Part shown: positions 36,836 to 50,310 of the stretch, in pieces
Layout: each line of letters opens with the position of its first letter
How positions within the stretch are numbered: position 1 is the first letter of the stretch
NCBI GenBank assembly: GCA_964631325.1
Contig: CAZVWJ010000002.1
Location: forward strand, 5,848 to 69,847
From: an uncultured bacterium
GTDB taxonomy: Bacteria > T1Sed10-126
DNA: 64,000 nucleotides
Direction of reading: 5' to 3'
Notes under the pieces: model-generated
Seen by the model: the letters and a program-made list of their open reading frames with translations, nothing else
What the model was told of the DNA's origin: nothing
Databases searched by the model: none
Translations under genes and position numbers: made by a program

Positions 36836-37804
36836 TCAAATCCTTTTTTCCTCCACCCCCTCCAGCCAGTGACTGAAATCCCGGTCCAGCAATTCTTCTA
36901 ATGTATTCACTTCAGAGCGCGTAATCTCAAGGAGCTCTTTTTGTAGTTCAAAAGACATGGGAGGACGAGAAAAATAATTAACCATTGCGGGCTCTAATTT
37001 GCGCCAGGCCTCCATACAGGACCTCACCGGCAATACTTCCCGCAACTGCTGTTTTGTCTCCCCGGGAACCCACTGCACCAGCTCCTGCAAAAGGTCACTC
37101 TTTAAACGGCAGTTAGAATTATAACGTTTAAACCGGGTAGAAGGAAACTCGTGTAAGCCTAAAAAGTTTAAAACTCGACGATAAACTGCTGAGACATCTT
37201 CTTTCATCTCTTCCAGAGGAATTATTAAGACGTTCTCCCGACCAAATTCTCGAAAATAACGCTTAATCTGCCGGGCATAACGATATACCTGAGAATATAA
37301 CAAACCGTCGGGGAAATAAGTCCCGGGAGGTAGCCTGTCCCCTTTTGCCCGCTGAGCCTCTAATTCCAGGGCTTGCTTAAAACTTTCAACGTTCTCATTG
37401 CCCGTGTATAAATACTGGCTGTGGAGTGCATACATGGCCTCCGGGATTTTTCGGAGCATAATAATAATTTTAGCTGTCGGCGAAAATTGCTTGATTTCCC
37501 GGGCAGCAGAGTGCGAATATAAATACCAGGTTGAAGCTTCTCCAACCTTTTTATGCCCCGCTGAACCGGCAAAAAAACCGAGATACTCTTTCCGGTTCCG
37601 AGTTTTTAAACGGTGGTTCTCCAAATCCGAACCAAAATACAGGGGCTCTTTTGGAACGGACATATATATATCCGGATGGTTCTGAAGGTAATAATACATG
37701 GAGGTCGTTCCACACTTGGGAGCGCCCACAATAAAAAAGTTAGGCCGTTTTATTTTTTCATTAGGCCCGGTAAAAATATCCGTCATCCGCTCGGTAACCT
37801 GCAT
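36836..37804 (-). CDS. PAPS-dependent sulfotransferase family protein
   Basis: 5'-PSB motif (FFIVGAPKCGTTSMYY) and 3'-PB region (RK...). 322 aa. Confidence 0.7.
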   Translation of the reverse strand: MQVTERMTDIFTGPNEKIKRPNFFIVGAPKCGTTSMYYYLQNHPDIYMSVPKEPLYFGSDLENHRLKTRNRKEYLGFFAGSAGHKKVGEASTWYLYSHSAAREIKQFSPTAKIIIMLRKIPEAMYALHSQYLYTGNENVESFKQALELEAQRAKGDRLPPGTYFPDGLLYSQVYRYARQIKRYFREFGRENVLIIPLEEMKEDVSAVYRRVLNFLGLHEFPSTRFKRYNSNCRLKSDLLQELVQWVPGETKQQLREVLPVRSCMEAWRKLEPAMVNYFSRPPMSFELQKELLEITRSEVNTLEELLDRDFSHWLEGVEEKRI

Positions 37805-38183: not shown

Positions 38184-41100
38184 ATGGCTTCTAACTCGCT
38201 TAAACCCCAAAAAATTATTTTATTGCTCGGGGTCGTTTTCTGCTTTTCTGTTTTCCTTTCCCCGGCAATTTCAGCGGATAAAAGCTCACTTCGAAAAAAA
38301 CTATCCCTACCAGAGTTCAGGCTTGAAGCAGAAGAAGTATCGGGCCGTGTAAAGATAAAGACAGACACAGGCTGGGAGAAGTTAAAGGCGGGCCGAAAAA
38401 TCCAGGAGGGAGCCCGTATATCGACGGAGTCAGGTGGGACAGCGGCGCTTGCCGTCCCGGGTGTAAGCTACCTGCAGATGGATACGGCGACTAATTTAGA
38501 GGTGAACAAATTAAAGCAAGTAGCCAGAGAGCAGGGACTTTTGATCAGCGGGGAGAAAGTTCTGGAAAACAAGGTGAAGCTCAAGCTAAAACAGGGCGGG
38601 GTTCAAAATAGTCTTCGCAAACACAAAAAGGTCACCACTGAATTTGACCTGGAAACGCCCAACGCCGTGGCCGGAGTGCGCGGAACTTCCTACCGCTGTG
38701 AAGTGGATGAAACCGGCCGCACAACCTGTGGTGTCCTGGAAGGAGAGGTTAGATTTGCCAGCCTGCGGCAACCACAAAATACCCGCACCCTCAGAGAAAA
38801 CGAAAAATCCAGTCTGGCGGCTGAAGACACCGAGCCGGAAGAGCCCGAACAAATGTCCGAAAAAGAGACGGAAGAGCTGCAGAAATTCACGGACAAGGCT
38901 GAAAAGAAACTGCGGCTGAAACCTTTTGCTGATGAGCTCCAGCTAAACGACAGGGAATTTACCAGGACAGGAAAAGGGATATTTAAATTAACCTACGAAT
39001 ACAGGAAGCAACACGAATTAATTTTAAGCGGGATTGCGGGAGCCCGCGAGGAGAATGCTGAATTGGAGCTGGTTGAAGTTAACCTGGCCGGTTCGGATCT
39101 GCCGGTAGAAGGGACACAGAAATGGCAGGCCGCATTTACTATTGAGGCTCCAACTGAAGGCAAAAAGAAGACAATAAGCGGCCAGGTGCGAGCTCAAGAT
39201 AGCCTCGGCCAGCGGTCCCGTGCTTATCCGGTGCAAATTATTCTCGTGCATCCGGAGAAACAGGGGGCTTTACCGGCAAATCTATTGCCGGGTAAAGTGC
39301 CGATTAACGTGGAGACAATCGGCGGACGACCGGTAAGCCAGCTATCTTTTCCTTACCCTGTGTCCAGTAAAATATTCGACAACTATAGCTGGCAAAAAAC
39401 TTCTGATACCGAGGTACAGGCCTCCCGGCAGGGAATAAAGATCAGCGGAGCCGTAAATACGGATTCAACCGTGGCCGGAGTGGCCTACCGGTTAAGTCCG
39501 GCCCAGGAATGGCGGCTGGCAGCCGGAAAAAGTGAGTGGTCCTTTATTATCGGTAAAGAAGAACTCACCGCAACTCCTGAACTCAACCCGGAGGTCGTAG
39601 CCTGGACGGAGTCCGGACGGATAGGGACTGAAGTCAGCGCCGGACAATTAAATTACCGGCAAATAGAGACTGTATATCCGGGCGGTTACTCTCAGGGAAA
39701 AATAGAGCTTGAACTGGAGACTATAAACGAAGCCCCGGTGACCAGTTTTCCCGTCACGGTAAAAACCTCACAGTTGCGCACAAATCAGCTTGTTTTCCGG
39801 GGCCGGGCCCAGGCTGACTCTGAAATCCAGGGGGTCGCCTATCGCACGGAGGGAGGCCAGTGGCAGCAGGCTGAAGGAGCCTCTGACTGGCTGATCAAGC
39901 TCCCTCTTCCGACTTCTTCACAATCTTTAGAACTGGAAATAATTGCCTGGACAGCCGGGAAAAAAATCAGTGCGCCCCGCCGGTTCGGGCCGGTTGAATA
40001 TCAGTTTGAAGAGACAGTTCTCCCGGTTAATTTTACCCGGGGAGAAGTACCGGTAAATTTCGAAACCCTGGCCGGTAAACAGGTATCTGACCTTGAATTT
40101 CCATTTAACTTAAACAGCACTCAGTTGGACGGAGATGAAATCCAACTCACCGGCAGTGTCACCGCGGACTCGCCAATCAAGGGAGTGGCAGTCCGGGTTA
40201 ACGGAGGCAACTGGCAGCAGATAGCCGAAGGGAGCAAGCAGTGGGCTTTTACGCTTCCGGGCACAGAAAGCGGTGAGTTCACCGTAGAAGTCCGGGCCTG
40301 GACGTCCGGCCAGGTGCTTGGTGAAATACATTCCCTGGGACCGGTCAATTTTCAGGTGGTAGAGACAATCCCCCCCTCCACTTACGAATCCGGAAAAGTT
40401 AAAATTGAGTTTACCAGGGTGGCCGGATTAGATTATTCAAACGTTGAATTTCCCCTGCACACTTTCCAGGAGGACCTGGACGCCGGACAGTTGATTATTG
40501 AAGGAACTGCGGAGGGGGAAGCCACAATCGAGGGAGTGGCTTACAGCACTGACGGCGGAGCAAACTGGGAGCTGGCCGAAGGCGACGCGAACTGGAGCTT
40601 CAGTCTACCCGTGGAGGGATCAGCCGAATTTGATCAGCTCCGGGTGATTGCTTGGACCACCGCCGGAATTATTGGCGAAGCCGAAACTCTTGAAACTATC
40701 GACCACACCCAGGTCAGCTATTCGACTCACCTGCGCGATCTCTTTCAGCAGGAATGGGAAGCTTTCACCAGTGAAAACACCGAAGAAATGCTGGAATCTT
40801 ACGGCAGTAATTTTTCTTACCAGGACGCTCGGACAGGTGTGCAGAAAGAGCGGGCCGAGTTCAAAAATTTCCTGGAAACATTTTACAGCGACGTGCGCAA
40901 TCTTGCTGTCTCCTACAACGTCAACCAGGTGTTCTCCAGTCAGAACGGCGGAGAAATTACTTTTAATTTAGAATGGCGGGGCACAGCCGATGATCCCAAC
41001 CGGCCTTTTGTGATTTTCGGCGACGGCTGTGTTCACAACTACACCCGTAAAAACGACGGTTCCTTCCAGTTGACCACGTTTAAAAATTTCCCCCTGATAC

Positions 41101-41546
41101 TTTACCTGTTTCATAAGGAGGACGTGGAAATTCCGGACTTAGGTGGAATCGGAATTAGAAATCTTGCCGTCTTCAGCCGGACCGAGGACGCCGATATACT
41201 TGCTTACTGCAGGCCGGATATGCTTCAGGCAAACTACGCCACCCTGGAGCTGGGCGGCGATGTGAAAGACGGTGGACTGAAAAAATTGAGTTCTTCGGGT
41301 TTCTCCGGTGTCTCCAGTCTTCCCACCCTGGGCAGTGGTTACACCAGCGGGAGCAGTACAGTTATTCATCCGGGCGAACTATACGCAATTAATCTGCGCC
41401 ACCAGGGAGGCGGAGCTTCCTCGGCCCTGGCAAAAATCATCGAAATTACCGCCAGTCACGTTGAGGTTCAGATTATCTCCGCCCAGTCCCCACCCGGAAT
41501 AGAAGAAAAAATACAGCTCGACTACCGGGGGGTGGATCCCTTTTGA
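38184..41546 (+). CDS. Large secreted FecR-domain protein with five repeated beta-sandwich modules of about 150 aa and an NTF2-like C-terminal domain
   Basis: 1120 aa. Signal peptide (ILLLGVVFCFSVFLSPAISA), FecR-like segment (ISTESGGTAALAVPGVSYLQMD) and recurring GVAYR..GG.W..AEG...W.F.LP units. Its stop overlaps the start of the downstream beta-barrel gene. Confidence 0.7.
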   Translation: MASNSLKPQKIILLLGVVFCFSVFLSPAISADKSSLRKKLSLPEFRLEAEEVSGRVKIKTDTGWEKLKAGRKIQEGARISTESGGTAALAVPGVSYLQMDTATNLEVNKLKQVAREQGLLISGEKVLENKVKLKLKQGGVQNSLRKHKKVTTEFDLETPNAVAGVRGTSYRCEVDETGRTTCGVLEGEVRFASLRQPQNTRTLRENEKSSLAAEDTEPEEPEQMSEKETEELQKFTDKAEKKLRLKPFADELQLNDREFTRTGKGIFKLTYEYRKQHELILSGIAGAREENAELELVEVNLAGSDLPVEGTQKWQAAFTIEAPTEGKKKTISGQVRAQDSLGQRSRAYPVQIILVHPEKQGALPANLLPGKVPINVETIGGRPVSQLSFPYPVSSKIFDNYSWQKTSDTEVQASRQGIKISGAVNTDSTVAGVAYRLSPAQEWRLAAGKSEWSFIIGKEELTATPELNPEVVAWTESGRIGTEVSAGQLNYRQIETVYPGGYSQGKIELELETINEAPVTSFPVTVKTSQLRTNQLVFRGRAQADSEIQGVAYRTEGGQWQQAEGASDWLIKLPLPTSSQSLELEIIAWTAGKKISAPRRFGPVEYQFEETVLPVNFTRGEVPVNFETLAGKQVSDLEFPFNLNSTQLDGDEIQLTGSVTADSPIKGVAVRVNGGNWQQIAEGSKQWAFTLPGTESGEFTVEVRAWTSGQVLGEIHSLGPVNFQVVETIPPSTYESGKVKIEFTRVAGLDYSNVEFPLHTFQEDLDAGQLIIEGTAEGEATIEGVAYSTDGGANWELAEGDANWSFSLPVEGSAEFDQLRVIAWTTAGIIGEAETLETIDHTQVSYSTHLRDLFQQEWEAFTSENTEEMLESYGSNFSYQDARTGVQKERAEFKNFLETFYSDVRNLAVSYNVNQVFSSQNGGEITFNLEWRGTADDPNRPFVIFGDGCVHNYTRKNDGSFQLTTFKNFPLILYLFHKEDVEIPDLGGIGIRNLAVFSRTEDADILAYCRPDMLQANYATLELGGDVKDGGLKKLSSSGFSGVSSLPTLGSGYTSGSSTVIHPGELYAINLRHQGGGASSALAKIIEITASHVEVQIISAQSPPGIEEKIQLDYRGVDPF

Positions 41547-42109
41547 AATTAAACTTTAAACTGCTGGCCGGTCTGTTTGTTTTAATAGCGCTGGTGGGAA
41601 CTTTTCCGCCTGGCGCCAGGGCCGGGCTGGCCATATACTCCCCAAATTTTTCCTCTGACAGCAATCCCGGCGAATCAAACGGGGAACAGCAATCTACTCC
41701 TGAAGAAATTAGTTCTGTCCGCAAAAAACGATGGTTTATCGGTCTCACCTATCCCGGAATTACAGCGGGGTATCAGGGCAATAGTTTCGCCCTGGAACTA
41801 CGGGGCTACAGAAGCGGAAACACTACAATTTACGGCCCCCGTTTTACCAATTACGTCTACTCATTCCGGGGGGGCAATCTTTACTGGGGAATCGATCTTT
41901 ATTCAGTCAGTGAATTCGAAGGAGATTTAACCCGGGGGGACGGTTACATGGCCGGAGGTATTATCGGTCTACAAAAATACATCGGTTCCCGGTTCTCTTT
42001 CACTCTTGACTCGGGGCCCTACTACATCAAGCTGGAAGACGATCTCTCCGGGCTTGATAACAGCGGTGTTGAGTTTGTAATTAACACCGGCTTAAACATT
42101 CATTTTTAA
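41543..42109 (+). CDS. Small outer-membrane beta-barrel protein (OmpW/OmpA-like 8-strand class)
   Basis: 188 aa, signal peptide, alternating hydrophobic beta-strand pattern and a C-terminal ...LNIHF ending in Phe. Confidence 0.6.
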   Translation: MKLNFKLLAGLFVLIALVGTFPPGARAGLAIYSPNFSSDSNPGESNGEQQSTPEEISSVRKKRWFIGLTYPGITAGYQGNSFALELRGYRSGNTTIYGPRFTNYVYSFRGGNLYWGIDLYSVSEFEGDLTRGDGYMAGGIIGLQKYIGSRFSFTLDSGPYYIKLEDDLSGLDNSGVEFVINTGLNIHF

Positions 42110-42139
42110 GGCGAGGAAGTCAGGTTAGGTGAATGGCAC

Positions 42140-45100
42140 ATGACTGCTAAAAAACAAAATATCTGGTTCTGTCTGACCGCAGTATTTCTGCTGTTCTGGC
42201 TCGTTTTACCGGCCCGGTCTACAGATACTTTACCGGAAAAATATGTCTCTGCCGGCACCGATCAATTGAAAGAAAAACAGAAATACCAGCTTGCCGGTAT
42301 TTCTTTTGGCCCGGTGGAGGCGGTTGAAGAACAGGTCGAGGAGCTGGACAACAAAGCTAATGATTACTGGATAGCCCACTGGCAGGATAACAACTGTACC
42401 GGTGACGCCAGTGATCCAGAATGTGCCGGGGTCGTAAACTTCCCCCAGAAAGTGCTCGATTACTGGAAAAACCATCCACACGATAGACCGGATAGCTGGG
42501 CCGTATCAGTAAACTCCCCTTCAGCCAGCACCACTTCCAGTTCCCCGGACACGGTCGCTGAAACACACTCTAGCCCACTCTGGCGGGCTAAAACCAGTGG
42601 CGTTCTTACTTCCGCTCCGGCCGTTGATGAAGAAGGAACCGTTTACTTTGGCAGTTATGACAAAAAAGTTTATGCCCTGTATCCGGACGGGTCAGAAAAA
42701 TGGACTTTCACTACCGGTGGAGCTATCCACGCCGCCCCGGCTCTGGGAGCCGGCGACACGTTGTATGTGGCCAGTGAAGACAAATATCTCTATGCCCTGG
42801 ATACGGAAGCCGGGAACGTGTTGTGGAAATACAAAACCGCGGGGCGCCTGCACTCTTCGCCGGCCATCAGTTCCAATGGCATAATTTATGTCGGCTGTAC
42901 GGACAACAAACTGTATGCAATCCGTCCCGACAGCGACGGAGACGATGAGGGAGAGCTGGCCTGGACTTATACAACCGGTGGTCGGATAACCTCTTCCCCC
43001 ACTCTAAGCGCCGACTCTACAGTTTACGTCGGCTCCTGGGACAAAAATCTGTATGCGGTCCGTCCCGACAATAGCAATGACGGAGAAGGTGAATTAAATT
43101 GGAAAGTTTCCACCGGCGGCGAAATTAAATCATCCCCGGCTCTCGGAGCAGACGGAACTATTTATTTTGGCAGTCATGATAAACATCTTTATGCCCTCAA
43201 TTCTGACGGGACTGAACAATGGAGTTCCAACCTCGAAGGGGCAGTCTGGTCCTCACCGGTTATCGGAAGTGATTCCACTGTTTACGTCGGTTCCTGGAAC
43301 GGCAAGCTATATGCTCTCAACCACAAAGACGGCTCAACTGAGTGGACGTTTACCACCGGCGAAAGAATTGTTGCCTCTCCGCTGGTCGGAAGCAAACGGA
43401 TTTATGTCGGTTCTCACGACAATACTCTCTACGCACTTAATCCGGACACGCCCGGTGGGCCGGGAAGCTGGAAGTTCTCAACCGGGGAAGCAATTTTTGC
43501 CGGCACCAACCTCCGGGACACTTCCCTGTATGTGGTTTCAGGTGATAATTACCTTTACGCCCTTGAAGCCGACACTTCCGGCCTCGCCCAATCCAGTTGG
43601 CCAAAATTCGGCGGCAACCACAAAAATACCGGCCAGACGCCCGAACAACTACCGGAAGAATACAGCGGTCCGACCTGGTATGTGAACGACGATACCACAG
43701 CCGGCGACGTCTATACTTCAGCCCCGGGTTCAAATGAAAATCCCGGCAGTCCGGACGCCCCCTTCCTTACTATTTCCCGGGCTCTGGAAGCTGCCACCAC
43801 CGGCGATACTATAATGATCGATGCCGGCACCTACGGGGAAACGGTAGCCATTGACACCAACTCCCTGGCCCTGGTCGGTGCTGACTCCAGTCCGGCCGGG
43901 ACTGTCATAGATGCCGGCGACAGTTCCGCCGCCAGTAAATTGATTGTTCTTCGTTCGGATACCGTCACCAACCTTCAAATCAAAAATTTAAGGGTGGCCA
44001 ACGGATACTGGGGATTAATCCTTTACAACACAGATAACTCACTCGTAGAAAACGTTATGGCCACTTCTAACAAATCAGTGGGAATCGGTTTAGTAAACGG
44101 CTCTGAGTTTAACACCCTCAGCGAGGTCAGCACTTCCAATAACGATTCTGGTGGGCTGACGATAGATTCTGCAAACAACTTAGTTAAAAACAGTAATTTT
44201 TCAAAAAATGGGGATGACGGTTTAAGTATTGCCCTGTCGGCTACCGCCAACATAGTTTATAACAACCTGGTGAGCAATAACGATCAAGCCGGAATTAACG
44301 TCGAGGGAAGCGATAATGAAATTCGGCAAAACCAAATTATTAATAATAATCTCAGCACTACCAGTAATGATGGAGGGCTGGAATTAGGTGACGCAGAGAA
44401 CGGAGAAATCGCCGAAAACAACCTTGTGGTGCGGAATTTAATCAAGGACAACTATAATGGCATCGAGTTGAGAGGAACTAACCAAAATTTAATCCACAGC
44501 AACGAACTGGTAAATAATGCATATCATCTTTATCTTGAAGACACCGCCACTACCTTTAATGATACCTTTACCAAGAACAACCTGACCTCAGCCGGAGATT
44601 CACTGGTAATGGCTGTAGGCTTTTCAGGAACAGAGGCCAAACTGCTCAGAAACTGGTGGGGGATGACAGATGAAATCGCTATTCAGTCAAAAATCCAGGG
44701 ACCTCTGGCGGATGCAGTTGTATTTCAACCTTACCGATTAAACAAAGTGGACACAGGAACCGGAGCCGATACACTTGCTCCGGCAACACCGGTGGCTGAC
44801 ACCGTTGCTGGCAGCCACAGTGGAATAGCCCTGAGCTGGAACCAGGTTAACACTGACGAAAACAACAACCCGCTGACAGATTTTGCCGAATACAGGATCT
44901 ATAAAACTACTTCCGGGACTGAAACCGACTGGAAAAATAATGCACTCATGGTCAGCTCTATCAGCAGTGTTTCCGACACTGATTACGTAGATACTTCCGT
45001 CACCCCCGGCGAAACTTATTACTATCGAATTACTGCTGTAGACAGCGCACCGGCAGAAAACGAATCATTTTTTAGCAGTACCTTAATAGCCCAGGCCAAA

Positions 45101-48100
45101 CCCTGGTCCGGTCCCACCTGGTATGTAAACGATAACTATACGGGGGACGAAATTTACACCTCCACCGCCGGTTCAGACACTAACACCGGCGGCCCCTCGG
45201 ATCCCTTCCGAACCATTTCAGAAGCAATGAGTCATGTCGCCGCCGAAGATACTATCCTGGTCGACGCCGGCACTTACGGTGAAACTGTCGCCTTTATAAC
45301 TGACGGCCTCACTCTGGCCGGAGCCGGGTCAACCGCTACTAGCTTCGATTTCGGGGACAGCTCGACTGTCACTGCAGCCGTTGGTATTTATTCTGACACC
45401 CACAGCGGTCTGTTAATAAAAAATCTGAGCATTCGCAATTATATGATCGGTCTGTCTTTCAGCGGTGTTAGCGCTTCCCGGGTAGAAAACGTAACTGTTG
45501 AAAATTGTGGTGAAAGTGGGATGTACCTCTGGAATTCCGGCGGGGTTGTATTTAACCAGGTTGTTTCCAGGAATAATATTTTTGACGGACTTACCGTAGA
45601 TGGTTCAAAAAATATCAATGTTATTTCCAGTCGATTTACGGGCAACGACTCCAACGGACTTGTGTTTATTCAGTCGGACACAGCACTTGTTAAAGAAAAT
45701 CATCTCACCGAAAATAGCCAGGCCGGCCTTTTATTGGACAATACCTCAACTTCCCTGGCCAGCAATAACCTGATCACTGGCAATAACTCCGGTATGGAGT
45801 TAATTGGCGGATTCTTCAACGAAGTAATTCAGAACGATATCCGCAACAATACTAACTACCAGGTTTACAACACTACTTTTGACAACCTGTTTCGGAAAAA
45901 CAACCTCGTAGCCTCAACAACTAATCCGGACAGCGTAGTCAAGGATACTTCCTCGGGAATTGATTTTATCTACAACTGGTGGGGAACAACCGCCCACACA
46001 GCAATTGATACAAAGCTAACTGGTTTCGGGAGCTATGAACCCTACCGGCTTGGCCAAGTCGACACAGCCCCCGGAGCTGACACTATGGCATTCGCCTCAC
46101 CCATTGTAGACACAGCAGTGGTACTCGGTTCCGATACCGTAGAAGTTCGCTGGCAACAGATAACTACAAATGAAGAGGGCAGCGCGATGAGCGCTGATTT
46201 CAACAGTTATGTTATTTATCGTTCCACCTCCGATACCGTCACCGACTGGAAGCTGTATGAAATAGCCAGCCTTGCCGGTTCAATGAGCGACACTGATTAT
46301 ATTGATACCGATGTAACTCCCGGCCAAACTTACTACTATCGAATTACCGCCCTGGATGATCATACCCTGGACGGCGGCGACGGCACGGCTAAATTTGACA
46401 ATGAATCCTATTTCAGCAGTACAATCGCCGCCACCCCAACCCATTCCGGCCCCACCTGGTATGTGAACGATAACGATACCGCCGGAGACGTCTACACTTC
46501 AGCAGTTGGTTCCGAGACCCACACCGGCGGCCCCTCGGATCCCTTTCGAACCATTTCAGAAGCAATGAACCACGTCTCCGCCGGAGATACTATCCTGGTC
46601 GACGCCGGCACCTACGGCGAGACGGTGGCTATCGACACCAACTCCCTGGCCCTGGTCGGGGCTGATTCTCAAAGCACGATAATTGATTCACCCGGAGCTA
46701 ATGTCAATCTATACGCTTCAAACGCAGATAATATCTCCATTCGAAAATTGGGAGTCCAGAATAGTTCAGTTGGAATTGAACTTGATTCGATAACAAACTC
46801 CCTGGTTGAAAACGTTCACGTGGACACTGCAACAAATAATTCCTTGTATCTCTATCTTTCTGATTCTAATACAATTCGCTCTTCCTATTTTGGGCAGAGC
46901 GATAATGACCAGGTTATGCTCTATACTTCCAGCAATAACTTGATAGAACACAACATGGCTGAGAACGGTTGGGGACGAAGCTATTACCTGCAGGCTTCCT
47001 CTAATGACAATAAAATAATTAACAATCTGGCCCGGGCCGGACAATCCGGAATCGTTGTGCGCGGTTCCGATAATGTTCTGGTAGCGGATAATACAATCAG
47101 GGATATGTCGGGTTTCGGTATTAGCGCCCAGTTCTATCCGGTTAATTTAAGGGTCTTGAGAAATACCCTCTATAACGTGGGCAGTGTCAACCTGGAGTTA
47201 GAAGCTGACGGTTGTTACGTCGCTCAGAACACGGTGGACTCTCCCGGTAGCTGGGCTGTACAAACAAACGGTGGAGGAACAATTACAAAAAACAATATAT
47301 ACACAGGAACAATACTACCGGACAGCGGTGCTCTTAACTCAGGAGACTCTGTCGTTGACCTAACTCGCAACTGGTGGAATACCACTGACGAAAATCTGGT
47401 AGCCCGAAAAATTTACAATTCCGGCGCCGGAACCACAATATACAGCCCTTATCGGCTCGGCTTAGTAGATACCGGCGTCGGTGCCGACACTGTTGCTCCC
47501 GCCACTCCCGTTGCCGACACCGCCTTTGTGGTCGGCAGTGACACAATTGAAGTCCGCTGGCAGGAGGTCACCGCAGACGAAGACGGCAGCAGCCTCGATT
47601 TTAACCGTTACAATGTCCACCGTTCTAAATACGACACGGAAACCGATTGGTTAAGCAACACTTCTTCCAAAGGGTCGATAATGAGCGCCGGGGATACCAG
47701 TATTACAGACGATAACAATCTCATTCCCGGCCAGACCTACTATTACCGGGTCCTGGCCAAGGACGCTTCCTCGCCGGCAAACTCCTCTTTCTTCAGCGAT
47801 TCAATGAGTGTAACGCTACCTGCCTGGAACGGTCCTACCTGGTACGTAAATGATAACGACACCACCGGCGATGTTCATACCTCCGCCGTCGGTTCTGACT
47901 CCAACACCGGTGGACCAGACGATCCCTTCCGGACAATTTCCTATGCTCTTTCCCAGGTTTCAGCCGGGGACACCGTGCTCGTGGATGCCGGCACCTACGG
48001 AGCAACCGGCGAAACTATTACTCTAAGTGTTAACGATCTTGCCCTTGTCGGTGCTGACTCTGCAACCACGATACTTGATTTTGGAGATACTTCACCAGGA

Positions 48101-49201
48101 GCGGGGGCCGGTTTGTATGCATTAAACAGGCAGAATTTACAGATCCGCGATCTGGCAGTTAAAAATTCTTATCGCAATATCTACTGGGATGGAGTTACTT
48201 ATTCCAATATCGACAACGTCCGGGTTACAAATAGCGGTTACGTTGGTGTAACCCTGCTGGGCTCCGATACTAACGTAATTAAAAACAGTGACCTTTCAAA
48301 CAATTACGGCTACGGGATTTCATTCAATTCTGCCAACGATAATCAACTTAGAAATTCCAGCTTAACTTCAAATTATAATGATATTGAAATTAATTCCAGT
48401 TCTGACAATACAATAAGCGAAAATCACCTGACCGGGTCAGGGGCTGATGCTATCATTCTCTCTGTAGCCAGCCAAAACAAAATTTCAAATAATGTCATTG
48501 AAAATAGCCAGGGTGATGGAATTTATATTGCTAATTCTCAATTCAATACAATCGTCCAGAATGAAATCAAGAATAACAACGATTACCAAATTTATCAGAC
48601 CGGGACCACCGGAGAGATAAATCTCGCCACCAAAAATAACATCGCTGCTTCGGCCACCAACCCCGACTCGCTGGCTTACAACGACGTTACTTCTGATACA
48701 ACCAATTTTACTTACAATTACTGGAACAGCACCGACTCCGCCGTCATCAGCAGTGGGTTAGCCGGCGCAGGAAATACTCTCCAGGTCCCCTATCTATTGC
48801 GTAAAGTAGATACCGGCGTCGGCGCCGACACTAATCCGCCCGCAATACCGGCTAATGTCGTTGCTGACACCGTAGCCGGAGGAACAATCACCATAAGCTG
48901 GGACGAGGTTACTACTAACCAGGACGGCAGCACCATTGGTGACTTTGAAAAATACACGGTTTACCGGCTCAGAGCAGATACAGTTACCGACATAAAGAAT
49001 AACTACAATGATGTAAGTTATACCTCCGGCGGTGCCACTGATACTTCCGTTACCAACTCCCCCGGTGGACTTGCTTCGGGGGATACTTACTATTATGTCA
49101 TCACTGCTATTGACAATCCTCTCACGGACGGTGGAGATGGGACCTCCGACTTTATAAACGAGTCCTATTTCAGCACTATGATTAGTGTAGTCGCCCCGTA
49201 A
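42140..49201 (+). CDS. Giant (2353 aa) secreted surface protein: PQQ-type beta-propeller followed by four tandem [right-handed parallel beta-helix + fibronectin-III] modules
   Basis: Signal peptide, then 8 or more PQQ-like blades (YALxxDGSEKWTF.TGG.I.SSPA). Four modules follow, each opening GPTWYVNDNDT.GDVYTSA.GS...GGP.DPFRTIS.A......GDTILVDAGTYGETVA and containing NxxxxN beta-helix rungs and an FN3 segment (Y.IYR......W......DTDY.DT.V.PG.TYYYRI.A.D). Confidence 0.8.
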   Translation: MTAKKQNIWFCLTAVFLLFWLVLPARSTDTLPEKYVSAGTDQLKEKQKYQLAGISFGPVEAVEEQVEELDNKANDYWIAHWQDNNCTGDASDPECAGVVNFPQKVLDYWKNHPHDRPDSWAVSVNSPSASTTSSSPDTVAETHSSPLWRAKTSGVLTSAPAVDEEGTVYFGSYDKKVYALYPDGSEKWTFTTGGAIHAAPALGAGDTLYVASEDKYLYALDTEAGNVLWKYKTAGRLHSSPAISSNGIIYVGCTDNKLYAIRPDSDGDDEGELAWTYTTGGRITSSPTLSADSTVYVGSWDKNLYAVRPDNSNDGEGELNWKVSTGGEIKSSPALGADGTIYFGSHDKHLYALNSDGTEQWSSNLEGAVWSSPVIGSDSTVYVGSWNGKLYALNHKDGSTEWTFTTGERIVASPLVGSKRIYVGSHDNTLYALNPDTPGGPGSWKFSTGEAIFAGTNLRDTSLYVVSGDNYLYALEADTSGLAQSSWPKFGGNHKNTGQTPEQLPEEYSGPTWYVNDDTTAGDVYTSAPGSNENPGSPDAPFLTISRALEAATTGDTIMIDAGTYGETVAIDTNSLALVGADSSPAGTVIDAGDSSAASKLIVLRSDTVTNLQIKNLRVANGYWGLILYNTDNSLVENVMATSNKSVGIGLVNGSEFNTLSEVSTSNNDSGGLTIDSANNLVKNSNFSKNGDDGLSIALSATANIVYNNLVSNNDQAGINVEGSDNEIRQNQIINNNLSTTSNDGGLELGDAENGEIAENNLVVRNLIKDNYNGIELRGTNQNLIHSNELVNNAYHLYLEDTATTFNDTFTKNNLTSAGDSLVMAVGFSGTEAKLLRNWWGMTDEIAIQSKIQGPLADAVVFQPYRLNKVDTGTGADTLAPATPVADTVAGSHSGIALSWNQVNTDENNNPLTDFAEYRIYKTTSGTETDWKNNALMVSSISSVSDTDYVDTSVTPGETYYYRITAVDSAPAENESFFSSTLIAQAKPWSGPTWYVNDNYTGDEIYTSTAGSDTNTGGPSDPFRTISEAMSHVAAEDTILVDAGTYGETVAFITDGLTLAGAGSTATSFDFGDSSTVTAAVGIYSDTHSGLLIKNLSIRNYMIGLSFSGVSASRVENVTVENCGESGMYLWNSGGVVFNQVVSRNNIFDGLTVDGSKNINVISSRFTGNDSNGLVFIQSDTALVKENHLTENSQAGLLLDNTSTSLASNNLITGNNSGMELIGGFFNEVIQNDIRNNTNYQVYNTTFDNLFRKNNLVASTTNPDSVVKDTSSGIDFIYNWWGTTAHTAIDTKLTGFGSYEPYRLGQVDTAPGADTMAFASPIVDTAVVLGSDTVEVRWQQITTNEEGSAMSADFNSYVIYRSTSDTVTDWKLYEIASLAGSMSDTDYIDTDVTPGQTYYYRITALDDHTLDGGDGTAKFDNESYFSSTIAATPTHSGPTWYVNDNDTAGDVYTSAVGSETHTGGPSDPFRTISEAMNHVSAGDTILVDAGTYGETVAIDTNSLALVGADSQSTIIDSPGANVNLYASNADNISIRKLGVQNSSVGIELDSITNSLVENVHVDTATNNSLYLYLSDSNTIRSSYFGQSDNDQVMLYTSSNNLIEHNMAENGWGRSYYLQASSNDNKIINNLARAGQSGIVVRGSDNVLVADNTIRDMSGFGISAQFYPVNLRVLRNTLYNVGSVNLELEADGCYVAQNTVDSPGSWAVQTNGGGTITKNNIYTGTILPDSGALNSGDSVVDLTRNWWNTTDENLVARKIYNSGAGTTIYSPYRLGLVDTGVGADTVAPATPVADTAFVVGSDTIEVRWQEVTADEDGSSLDFNRYNVHRSKYDTETDWLSNTSSKGSIMSAGDTSITDDNNLIPGQTYYYRVLAKDASSPANSSFFSDSMSVTLPAWNGPTWYVNDNDTTGDVHTSAVGSDSNTGGPDDPFRTISYALSQVSAGDTVLVDAGTYGATGETITLSVNDLALVGADSATTILDFGDTSPGAGAGLYALNRQNLQIRDLAVKNSYRNIYWDGVTYSNIDNVRVTNSGYVGVTLLGSDTNVIKNSDLSNNYGYGISFNSANDNQLRNSSLTSNYNDIEINSSSDNTISENHLTGSGADAIILSVASQNKISNNVIENSQGDGIYIANSQFNTIVQNEIKNNNDYQIYQTGTTGEINLATKNNIAASATNPDSLAYNDVTSDTTNFTYNYWNSTDSAVISSGLAGAGNTLQVPYLLRKVDTGVGADTNPPAIPANVVADTVAGGTITISWDEVTTNQDGSTIGDFEKYTVYRLRADTVTDIKNNYNDVSYTSGGATDTSVTNSPGGLASGDTYYYVITAIDNPLTDGGDGTSDFINESYFSTMISVVAP
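43669..49198 (+). repeat. Four tandem intragenic repeats of about 1.35 kb (module starts near 43669, 45111, 46449 and 47832)
   Basis: Nucleotide-level identity between modules, for example 46449-46680 against 43669-43900 and a near-identical 45-nt run at 45182 and 46520. This indicates recent internal duplication. Confidence 0.7.
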
Positions 49202-49268
49202 ACTAAAAAAATCTTCAAAAACAATCAAACTCTAATTTCTATAAATGTGTGCAGATGTTAGATGTTTG

Positions 49269-49457
49269 TTTAACCTAAATTGAGCGATTCTATGGTGAAG
49301 AGAAGAACATATTGCTCTCCGATGGATTTTTGTATTCTTTAGGGTTCAGGATGAACCCGTATTAAAGAATACATACCTCAGAGCAGTCCGGATGGCTGCG
49401 AGAATGAATCCGGAGAGTTATGTGTTCTTCGATAATAATCGCTCAATTTAGGTTTAA
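49269..49457. repeat. Nested-palindrome structured element of about 190 nt (candidate complex terminator, ncRNA or MITE) with perfect 20-bp terminal inverted repeats
   Basis: TTAACCTAAATTGAGCGATT at 49269-49289 pairs with AATCGCTCAATTTAGGTTTAA at 49437-49457. Inner complementary pairs include gaagaacatattgctctccg / cggagagttatgtgttcttc, gtattctttag..ttaaagaatac, ggttcaggatgaacc and tccggat..atccgga. A T-rich run follows. Confidence 0.6.
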
Positions 49458-49488
49458 TTATATTTTTCTTTTGTCAGGATAAATATTT

Positions 49489-50310
49489 ATGAACATTTTC
49501 AGTGACTTGCGTAAATTTCTCTTTATTGTATTGACTTTTCTTGCCTTTACAGCCCTTCCCGCCAGAGCACAATCTCCGGGCCATTTTACTCTCGGCTACG
49601 GAATCTCCAACTTTGAATACACAGAACCCAAGATGACGGAATCCGGCACACTCCAGCACCTGCAGGCAAAATACGAAAAATTTAAAGAACATCATTATAT
49701 TGGTATGGATGGCAACCTCTGGGCCGGTAACCTGAAATACGATGGAGAAACACTCGAAGAAAATCCTCGTCCTGTTACCACGGAAACTGATGATTTTATC
49801 CTTACAACGAATTTACGGGTGGGCACACCACAGCCTCGGAAAAGCGGAGTTCTTATTCCTTACCTGGGATTAGGATACAGGTACTGGAACAATGTAATCA
49901 CTGAAAGCAATATAACCGCTCGCACTGAACGAACCACCCAGTATTTCTACTCACCACTTGGTTTTCTACTGGCAAGCAATTCTGCGAGATTCGGCAAAAC
50001 AATTCTTAAAATGGAATATCTTTACTTCTGGGCGGGAAAAGTAACCACTCAATTTGGTAACGCACCAGAGTTAAATAATGACCAAAACCAGGGAAAAGGC
50101 GGAAGGATTGCGCTAACATTTTTACTCGGAGGTCAACAGAAAATTAGTCACAGCCTGAGTATATTTTTCAACTACTGGGACATTGAGCCTTCGGAATCCG
50201 ATTCTATCCTGGTGGATATCGATAACGACTCCACAAAGGAAAACGTGGCTTTTTATGAACCGGCCAACAGCACGGCAATTATCGGAGCTCAGTTAAATAT
50301 TACGTTTTAG
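49489..50310 (+). CDS. Outer-membrane beta-barrel protein (porin-like, 273 aa)
   Basis: Signal peptide (FIVLTFLAFTALPARAQ), amphipathic beta-strand periodicity and a C-terminal ...QLNITF ending in Phe. Confidence 0.6.
   Translation: MNIFSDLRKFLFIVLTFLAFTALPARAQSPGHFTLGYGISNFEYTEPKMTESGTLQHLQAKYEKFKEHHYIGMDGNLWAGNLKYDGETLEENPRPVTTETDDFILTTNLRVGTPQPRKSGVLIPYLGLGYRYWNNVITESNITARTERTTQYFYSPLGFLLASNSARFGKTILKMEYLYFWAGKVTTQFGNAPELNNDQNQGKGGRIALTFLLGGQQKISHSLSIFFNYWDIEPSESDSILVDIDNDSTKENVAFYEPANSTAIIGAQLNITF

Follow-up and report, generated by a model that had tools for sequence, protein, structure and literature searches.

What might three tightly packed genes for exported proteins be doing together at the envelope of an uncultured bacterium? 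The question is raised by a 64,000-nucleotide (nt) stretch of contig CAZVWJ010000002.1 (assembly GCA_964631325.1, positions 5,848 to 69,847; hereafter referred to as the window), in which four open reading frames (ORF1-ORF4) form the sole long plus-strand block, the remainder being transcribed from the minus strand. An earlier note on this DNA had described ORF1 as a FecR-led repeat protein, ORF2 as a small beta-barrel, ORF3 as a giant propeller/beta-helix protein and ORF4 as a second barrel; its coordinates, strands and lengths proved exact, as did its statement that no other long plus-strand unit is present. The first three genes (hereafter referred to as the trio) constitute a conserved, tightly coupled unit. 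We give an even chance to the reading that their products form an uncharacterised envelope complex held at the outer membrane, with the ORF2 barrel as its anchor or hub, ORF1 as a stalk, and ORF3 docking with exchangeable binding modules.

Synteny in relatives had been set beforehand as a test of the proposed association, and it was found. The order FecR/immunoglobulin (Ig)-repeat protein, small barrel, propeller protein was observed in six other loci (Table 1), that is, in every contig whose length allowed a judgement. Compared with the window proteins, identity ranged from 32 to 36% for ORF1 (up to 42% over a short C-terminal fragment in L017), from 52 to 66% for ORF2 and from 36 to 42% for ORF3, and these loci are therefore distant relatives rather than copies. 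Judging from the sequences, an arrangement whose gene order recurs in this way in six other loci is not due to chance. The trio was not encountered beyond a small group of uncultivated bacteria, and literature searches for a published FecR/barrel/beta-helix system found nothing relevant.

The junction between ORF1 and ORF2 was compared in six loci (the window, L002, L004, L005, L007 and L012). In all six, the last codons of ORF1 (Y/F-R-G/E-V-x-P-F) contain GGAGGTG or GGGGGTG (window 41519-41546), and a TTG in the barrel frame overlaps the ORF1 stop codon by 4 or 8 nt; in the window, the overlap is 4 nt, in the form TTGA, with the TTG at 41543. ORF2 lacks an in-frame Met ahead of residue 136, and a near-cognate start is therefore needed to include the signal peptide. 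The embedded Shine-Dalgarno sequence and the overlapping TTG, conserved at six of six junctions, provide strong evidence for coupled translation of ORF1 and ORF2, consistent with the tight coupling of the three genes suggested earlier. The Shine-Dalgarno sequence of ORF2 also codes for the conserved R-G/E-V residues of the ORF1 tail, the protein conservation of which may therefore reflect, in part, nucleotide-level constraint. Gene 3 begins 10-11 nt after the barrel stop codon in four of the loci, whereas this distance is 30 nt in the window and reaches 127 nt in L012. All three products bear Sec-type signal peptides.

ORF2 has no match in Pfam or NCBIfam, and searches with the barrel sequence and its profiles against the PDB yielded no sequence relative, only chance-level matches. 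Eight related proteins were retrieved by a word-indexed search of 5.8 billion clusters. The AlphaFold2 model, based on a nine-sequence alignment, contains eight strands (aa 63-187; predicted local distance difference test (pLDDT) values of roughly 70-96, mostly >90), with a disordered segment at aa 21-57; hydrophobic and polar residues alternate in the last strand, which ends in Phe. This model, which bears out the beta-barrel assignment of the 188-aa product, resembles OmpA, OprF-N, NspA and OmpW, and identifies ORF2 as a predicted anchor-type outer-membrane barrel of the OmpA/OmpX class. It shares with the OmpA-N/OprF-N/NspA/OmpW/OmpX class (the clan around OMP_b-brl, PF13505) a signal peptide, eight antiparallel strands and a C-terminal aromatic beta-signal, but matches none of the curated families (OMP_b-brl, OmpA_membrane, OmpW, Ail_Lom, DUF3575). 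A barrel of eight strands is too narrow for the passage of a polypeptide. On this model, ORF2 could therefore anchor or dock partner proteins, but is not a plausible channel dedicated to exporting the 248-kDa ORF3 protein. Of the dedicated export or anchoring relationship that had been proposed for these genes, anchoring would thus stand, whereas the export channel does not, because of the eight-stranded barrel.

A profile search of 1.84 billion representatives revealed a wider barrel family with 398 members at E≤1e-3 and 164 at E≤1e-10, most of them 150-200 aa long. Pfam OMP_b-brl touched 7 of 50 family members, and these only weakly, with scores below or near the cutoff. An N-terminal extension of more than 100 aa precedes the C-terminal barrel in 30 of the 156 matched family proteins. 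The recognisable extensions are CsgG/TolB_N/LpoB-like, PEGA, HEAT or TPR domains, that is, periplasmic-type modules. The domain order is the reverse of that in OmpA, with the tether or additional domains N-terminal and the barrel C-terminal.

To our knowledge, all even-stranded outer-membrane proteins have a periplasmic N-terminus. With this orientation, three hairpin tips of ORF2 (aa 70-71, 120-136 and 162-175) would be extracellular. Within the close family, these tips have mean conservation values of 1.00, 0.82 and 0.76, respectively, compared with 0.52-0.67 for the periplasmic turns; the corresponding values for the wide family are 0.86, 0.51 and 0.44 vs 0.20-0.23. In conservation, the predicted extracellular tips equal the strands and surpass the periplasmic turns, the inverse of the usual pattern for outer-membrane proteins; in OmpA-class barrels, the extracellular tips are variable.

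For ORF1, the signal peptide, FecR domain and five repeats were found as described in the earlier note, but the repeat size of about 150 aa given there was not: a hidden Markov model (HMM) of the repeat gives a period of ~117 aa, with bounds at aa 256-351, 363-488, 491-605, 606-722 and 723-839. The FecR domain begins ~45 residues past the signal peptide, with no additional domain ahead of it in Pfam or NCBIfam and no lipobox. The number of Ig-like repeats in the ORF1 homologues of the trio loci varies from 3 to 5. The final 290 aa are non-repeat and conserved across six loci (mean column identity 58%). The first ~120 aa of this C-terminal region match SnoaL_2/SnoaL (NTF2-like) in four of six members (best E 1.2e-4), and the last ~150 aa had no match. 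A single-sequence structure model of the C-terminal region had a pLDDT of 37, and comparisons of ORF1 and its C-terminal profile with PDB sequences yielded chance-level matches only. A homology search with full-length ORF1 returned three matches, dominated by FecR words.

The best NCBIfam matches of ORF1, both weak, were the Leptospira FecR-domain proteins LipL45 and Lsa33, which are likewise exported, non-anti-sigma proteins beginning with a FecR domain. Lsa33 has been reported to bind laminin and is predicted to be surface-exposed (PMC5553009). The suggestion that a FecR-led secreted protein had not been described was therefore too strong (PMC5553009), and the novelty lies in this particular architecture rather than in a secreted protein having a FecR domain. 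ORF1 scores far below the cutoffs of the two families (35.1 vs 420 and 26.6 vs 350 bits) and, unlike these proteins, is not a lipoprotein; it also differs from them in its five Ig-like repeats, its NTF2-like and unique C-terminal domains, and its coupled barrel gene.

ORF3 combines, as claimed previously, a pyrroloquinoline quinone (PQQ)-like propeller with four modules of beta-helix and fibronectin type III (FN3) domains, all confirmed by Pfam and NCBIfam. The conserved N-terminal segment, of ~75 aa with two Cys residues, lies immediately behind the signal peptide. The four modules begin at aa 510, 991, 1437 and 1898 and carry the N-terminal motif WYV...G.D...G...PF.TI in their beta-helices; they share only 38-41% pairwise identity, and the duplications are therefore old. 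Among natural proteins of solved structure, the propeller is most closely related to the archaeal PQQ-like propeller 3hxj, to fragments of archaeal “cell surface proteins” and to kinase sensor domains; BamB is a more remote match (E ~1e-13). Matches to alcohol (quinoprotein) dehydrogenases were local and weak (E 1e-4 to 1e-7), and a role as a PQQ-dependent dehydrogenase was rejected, as the strong matches are to non-enzymatic regular propellers. The C-terminus of ORF3 is the last FN3 strand, and neither a C-terminal sorting domain nor a lipobox was found. The tail is of the beta-helix/FN3 type in the window and in L002, whereas the 729-aa gene-3 product of L012 retains the N-terminal segment and propeller, followed by leucine-rich repeats (LRR) with no beta-helix. 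The N-terminal segment and the propeller thus make up the conserved core of the protein, and the tail is exchangeable.

Three groups of known proteins resemble ORF3 in part. BamB is an eight-bladed lipoprotein of ~390 aa, whereas ORF3 is not a lipoprotein, is six times larger, reaches only 143.1 of the 285.2 bits required for TIGR03300, and has a propeller closer to those of archaeal cell-surface proteins. The match to the NosD family TIGR04247 is similarly below the cutoff (104.7 vs 300 bits), and no nos genes lie nearby. With giant beta-helix adhesin-like proteins (DUF1565/NosD-like/CASH; Leptospira LIC10774; archaeal proteins), ORF3 shares a repeated right-handed beta-helix, FN3 domains and a propeller, but it lacks an anchor (C-terminal domain (CTD) of the type IX secretion system (T9SS), PEP-CTERM, LPXTG, autotransporter or lipobox); it has instead a docking-like N-terminal segment and a gene coupled to those of a barrel and a FecR/Ig protein.

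Further associations between these components were detected outside the trio. The 287-aa protein P0007 (L006 281-1144, Logan SRR18572992) consists of a probable signal peptide, one ORF1-type Ig repeat, a Pro-rich linker and an ORF2-type barrel, and its sequence identifies it as an apparent natural fusion of two of the three trio components. Its repeat matches aa 417-492 of ORF1 with a BLAST E value of 7e-13 and the repeat HMM with an E value of 1e-13; no propeller gene is visible downstream on its contig. In L015 (2434-4217, Ga0123519_10022190), a distant barrel gene (31% identity, lipobox-like N-terminus) overlaps by 4 nt the start of a gene for a 422-aa propeller protein (signal peptide plus SBBP/PQQ_2). 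No FecR gene is present there, the genome is AT-rich, and the barrel-propeller pair may be the older unit. L008 (2283-5755, Logan SRR34348088) contains a complete ORF1 homologue of 776 aa, with two repeats and the same C-terminal domain, convergent with a gene for a 365-aa protein with a signal peptide and a PQQ propeller 32% identical to that of ORF3; a second PQQ protein is encoded 6 kb away. Finally, L016 (1-2648, Ga0136447_1018852) encodes a 644-aa protein with a FecR domain and three Ig repeats, lacking the NTF2-like and C-terminal domains, and its gene starts at or overlaps the stop codon of a larger gene resembling those of outer-membrane proteins (product ending ...VGLTF). The pairings in L015, L008 and L016 are single cases and each could be coincidental; taken jointly, they point in the same direction as the linkage within the trio. 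HMMs of the ORF1 C-terminus and ORF3 N-terminus identified no further fusion proteins among 159 retrieved proteins.

None of the known routes to the cell surface accounts for the two large proteins. Pfam and NCBIfam revealed no signal of type I (T1SS), type V (T5SS), two-partner (TPS) or type IX secretion, nor any other sorting signal, in ORF1 or ORF3, in agreement with the earlier note. The coupling of a barrel gene to genes for large repeat and beta-helix proteins is reminiscent of type V secretion, and P0007 is arranged like a classical autotransporter, passenger first and barrel second. Nevertheless, an autotransporter (T5SS a, c, e) was ruled out: ORF2 has 8 strands rather than 12, there is no Autotransporter domain in ORF1-3 and there is no linker helix. 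Two-partner secretion was ruled out, as ORF1-4 gave no POTRA, ShlB or Haemagg_act/TPS match and there is no 16-stranded barrel. T9SS cargo was ruled out by the lack of a Por_Secre_tail or TIGR04183 match (Pfam, NCBIfam), and a T1SS RTX adhesin by the lack of both a HemolysinCabind match and nearby transporter genes. By analogy, the trio would work most like an OmpA-class anchor holding partner proteins. The parallels with Pal-TolB and BamA-BamB, in which an outer-membrane component works or is encoded with a PQQ/WD-like propeller, as ORF2 is with ORF3, are loose, as are those with the FecR-domain envelope proteins of Leptospira; some relatives of the ORF2 barrel bear TolB_N/CsgG-like N-terminal domains. 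As far as searches show, the full architecture of ORF1 and the trio itself have not been described, the fold types themselves being known.

In the anchored complex that we consider evenly poised between right and wrong, ORF1, ORF2 and ORF3 would be stoichiometrically co-expressed and would assemble together in the envelope. The ORF2 barrel would be a membrane anchor or docking hub rather than a pore; ORF1 would form a periplasmic stalk of variable length, with its family-specific C-terminal domain at the barrel; ORF3 would dock via its conserved N-terminal segment and propeller, and its lineage-variable array (beta-helix/FN3 or LRR) would bind ligands, carbohydrate or other, and so serve in adhesion or in the capture of substrates. 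The chances of ORF3 lying on the cell surface, which would require, for example, a type II export route, and of its lying on the periplasmic side appear to us about equal. Several points weigh against such a complex. Protein-protein contact within the trio is deduced rather than directly evidenced, and the compartments assigned to ORF1 and ORF3 would follow from precedents alone. The predicted eight-stranded anchor would not explain the export of ORF3 if this protein is surface-exposed. The P0007 fusion rests on a single 1.3-kb Logan contig, the ORF1-type gene of L008 has no adjoining barrel gene and, PQQ-like propellers being common in these genomes, the adjacency in L008 and L015 could be chance. 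That no interaction has been demonstrated, together with L008, is also what favours regarding the three genes as mere neighbours of unrelated function. We find this hardly credible, given that gene order, overlapping start and embedded Shine-Dalgarno sequence are retained at 32-36% ORF1 identity and that P0007 fuses two of the three components.

A possible, if doubtful, alternative is a wholly periplasmic complex on the inner face of the outer membrane, similar to Pal-TolB or BamA-BamB, with a function in envelope integrity or periplasmic glycan processing. Each recognisable domain has a periplasmic precedent (FecR as the periplasmic domain of anti-sigma factors, the BamB-like propeller with its 143-bit TIGR03300 match, the NosD-like beta-helix); the cell-surface location suggested for the block in the earlier note is one possibility, precedents existing for a periplasmic ORF3 too. 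The N-terminal fusions of the barrel family are periplasmic-type domains, both ends of an eight-stranded barrel face the periplasm, so that the Ig repeat of P0007 should do so too, and no signal for outer-membrane translocation was found in Pfam or NCBIfam. However, the swapping of gene-3 tails (beta-helix/FN3 vs LRR) and the variation from 3 to 5 repeats in ORF1 are more typical of proteins facing the environment, among natural proteins of solved structure the propeller is closer to archaeal cell-surface proteins and kinase sensor domains than to BamB, and the conserved barrel tips lie on the predicted outer side. A more speculative version of surface anchoring, which we consider unlikely, is that the conserved outer face of the barrel and a FecR/Ig/NTF2 stalk hold module-swapping giants on the surface with no known signal, a new form of anchoring with display possibly assisted by the beta-barrel assembly machinery (BAM). 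Still less likely, in our view, is a self-contained new export or display system moving ORF3, ORF1 or both across the outer membrane. A conserved tight operon does join an outer-membrane protein to two large proteins with only Sec signals, and no known secretion signal or partner was found, but the 125-aa eight-stranded barrel has, in the model, no lumen for a polypeptide; POTRA, a TPS domain and a barrel of 12 or 16 strands are all lacking, the wider barrel family resembles anchors of periplasmic modules, and the confident closed monomer model gives no sign of an oligomeric pore. FecR-type cell-surface signalling, in which ORF1 would pick up a signal from the outer-membrane protein and pass it inward, seems highly improbable. 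ORF1 has a bona fide FecR domain (PF04773) encoded beside an outer-membrane beta-barrel, like the FecR/FecI/FecA system, and it weakly matches a Leptospira anti-sigma family in NCBIfam (E 0.0024). In ORF1, however, a signal peptide takes the place of the cytoplasmic anti-sigma domain and transmembrane helix of FecR-type anti-sigma proteins, the ORF2 barrel has no plug or signalling domain, and no locus contains an extracytoplasmic function (ECF) sigma factor or TonB-dependent transducer. The neighbours identified across the trio loci are sulfotransferase, fumarase, cyclic nucleotide monophosphate (cNMP)-binding proteins, rubrerythrin, cold-shock protein and a porin-like protein; no secretion-system, sigma factor or TonB-dependent receptor gene was found near the trio in the window or in the sequenced flanks of the other loci.

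The fourth gene does not appear to belong with the other three. ORF4 begins with a signal peptide and ends in Phe, its match to OMP_b-brl is just under the cutoff (26.4 vs 28.7 bits) and its Autotransporter-domain match is also sub-threshold (19.9 vs 26 bits); it is putatively a larger outer-membrane barrel, and BLAST indicates that it is unrelated to ORF2. The C-terminal Phe and the lack of kinship with ORF2 are as reported in the earlier note, but the inclusion of ORF4 in a self-contained block is not supported. A look-up with ORF4 retrieved nothing but a 2-kb copy of the window. In L012/L014, the only other locus giving sequence downstream of gene 3, this gene is followed by genes for an OmpA_C-like coiled-coil protein and a 148-aa ORF rather than ORF4, which was therefore rejected as a fourth member of the module. 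The spacer between ORF3 and ORF4 (49202-49488, 287 nt) contains the structured element noted previously, a strongly folding imperfect palindrome (−96 kcal/mol, z −8.1 relative to shuffled sequences, for the plus strand; −85 kcal/mol, z −8.6, for the minus strand). Rfam offers no family for this palindrome, which occurs as a single copy in the sequences compared (the window and all the loci retrieved) and could be a miniature inverted-repeat transposable element (MITE), a terminator or stabiliser, or an untranslated region (UTR) element. A scan for promoters and terminators gave signals no better than those of shuffled sequences.

Table 1. Features of the ORF1-ORF4 block (window coordinates; aa, amino acids of the protein named) and accessions of the other loci containing the trio.
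Feature	Position or accession	Strand	Description
ORF1	38184-41546	+	1120 aa
ORF1 signal peptide	aa 1-31	+	cleavable-looking; K-rich n-region, hydrophobic core, cleavage between AIS and A
ORF1 FecR domain (PF04773)	aa 78-190; 38415-38753	+	Pfam E 3.6e-11, 43.8 bits vs cutoff 24
ORF1 charged linker	between FecR domain and repeats	+	
ORF1 five Ig-like repeats	aa 256-839; 38949-40700	+	repeat HMM; motif GVAYR...W...AEG..W
ORF1 C-terminal region	aa 830-1120; 40671-41543	+	NTF2-like domain and unknown beta-rich domain; ends Y-R-G-V-D-P-F
ORF2	41543-42109	+	188 aa; TTG start; signal peptide, ~35-aa disordered linker, 8-stranded barrel aa 63-188, end ...NIHF
ORF3	42140-49201	+	2353 aa; signal peptide, Cys-containing N-terminal segment, PQQ-like propeller, four beta-helix + FN3 modules
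ORF3 conserved N-terminal segment	42287-42514	+	AGIxFGPVxAVExxVxELDxxAxxxW...C...C..FPxKVxxYW..P.D.PD; aligns in all six gene-3 homologues
ORF3 PQQ-like beta-propeller	42572-43639	+	Pfam/NCBIfam; fold label only
ORF3 Beta_helix/NosD/DUF1565 + fn3 modules	43667-45109, 45110-46447, 46448-47830, 47831-49198	+	Pfam/NCBIfam
Imperfect palindrome	49269-49457		189 nt; 21-nt terminal arms 95% complementary
ORF4	49489-50310	+	273 aa
Trio locus L002	GCA_964440635.1		
Trio locus L004	GCA_046546195.1		
Trio locus L005	Logan SRR34348094		
Trio locus L007 = L009	GCA_964555265.1		
Trio locus L012 = L014	PWHN01000101.1		metagenome-assembled genome (MAG) T1Sed10_126 (soda-lake sediment)
Trio locus L017	Logan SRR21412995		

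The block is flanked by minus-strand housekeeping genes, with sulfotransferase, fumarase and malic enzyme genes on one side and genes for cNMP-binding proteins and an AI-2E transporter on the other. The sulfotransferase gene (36836-37804, minus strand) is divergent from ORF1 over a 379-nt AT-rich spacer, and is not kept beside the trio in other loci. Elsewhere, the window encodes ribosomal protein S1, AhcY, enzymes of aromatic amino-acid biosynthesis, glycosyltransferases and a Wzy_C/O-antigen-ligase-like protein. AhcY, ribosomal protein S1 and fumarase are singletons at 90% identity in a collection of 15 billion proteins, and the source organism is therefore without a close sequenced relative. 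The guanine-cytosine (GC) content of the window is ~46%. The T1Sed10_126 MAG is the type genome of the GTDB candidate phylum T1Sed10-126 (“Ca. Busufiota”), the genomes of which, from sediment of hypersaline soda lakes, are 2.15-2.2 Mb long, with 46-48% GC (PMC11382960). The window may belong to this phylum or to a neighbouring one. For a T1Sed10-126 MAG, mla and lol transcripts have been reported (PMC13162412), which fits a diderm envelope. Directly upstream of the trio in L012 (1401-3077) lies a gene whose 558-aa product resembles both SlpA_C (S-layer/outer-membrane tether barrel) and Porin_4, a hint that the outer membrane of this candidate phylum is organised in an unusual way.

If the trio forms a complex, it would be a lineage-specific envelope structure in the barely studied candidate phylum T1Sed10-126 and its relatives. 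It would also provide a role for very small outer-membrane barrels that make up an uncurated family of ~400 cluster representatives, and a second non-signalling context for the FecR domain, beyond that of LipL45 and Lsa33 in Leptospira. Should ORF3 be surface-exposed, one would have to look beyond the catalogued secretion systems to explain how it is exported and anchored; should it be periplasmic, it would constitute an unusually large periplasmic beta-helix scaffold.

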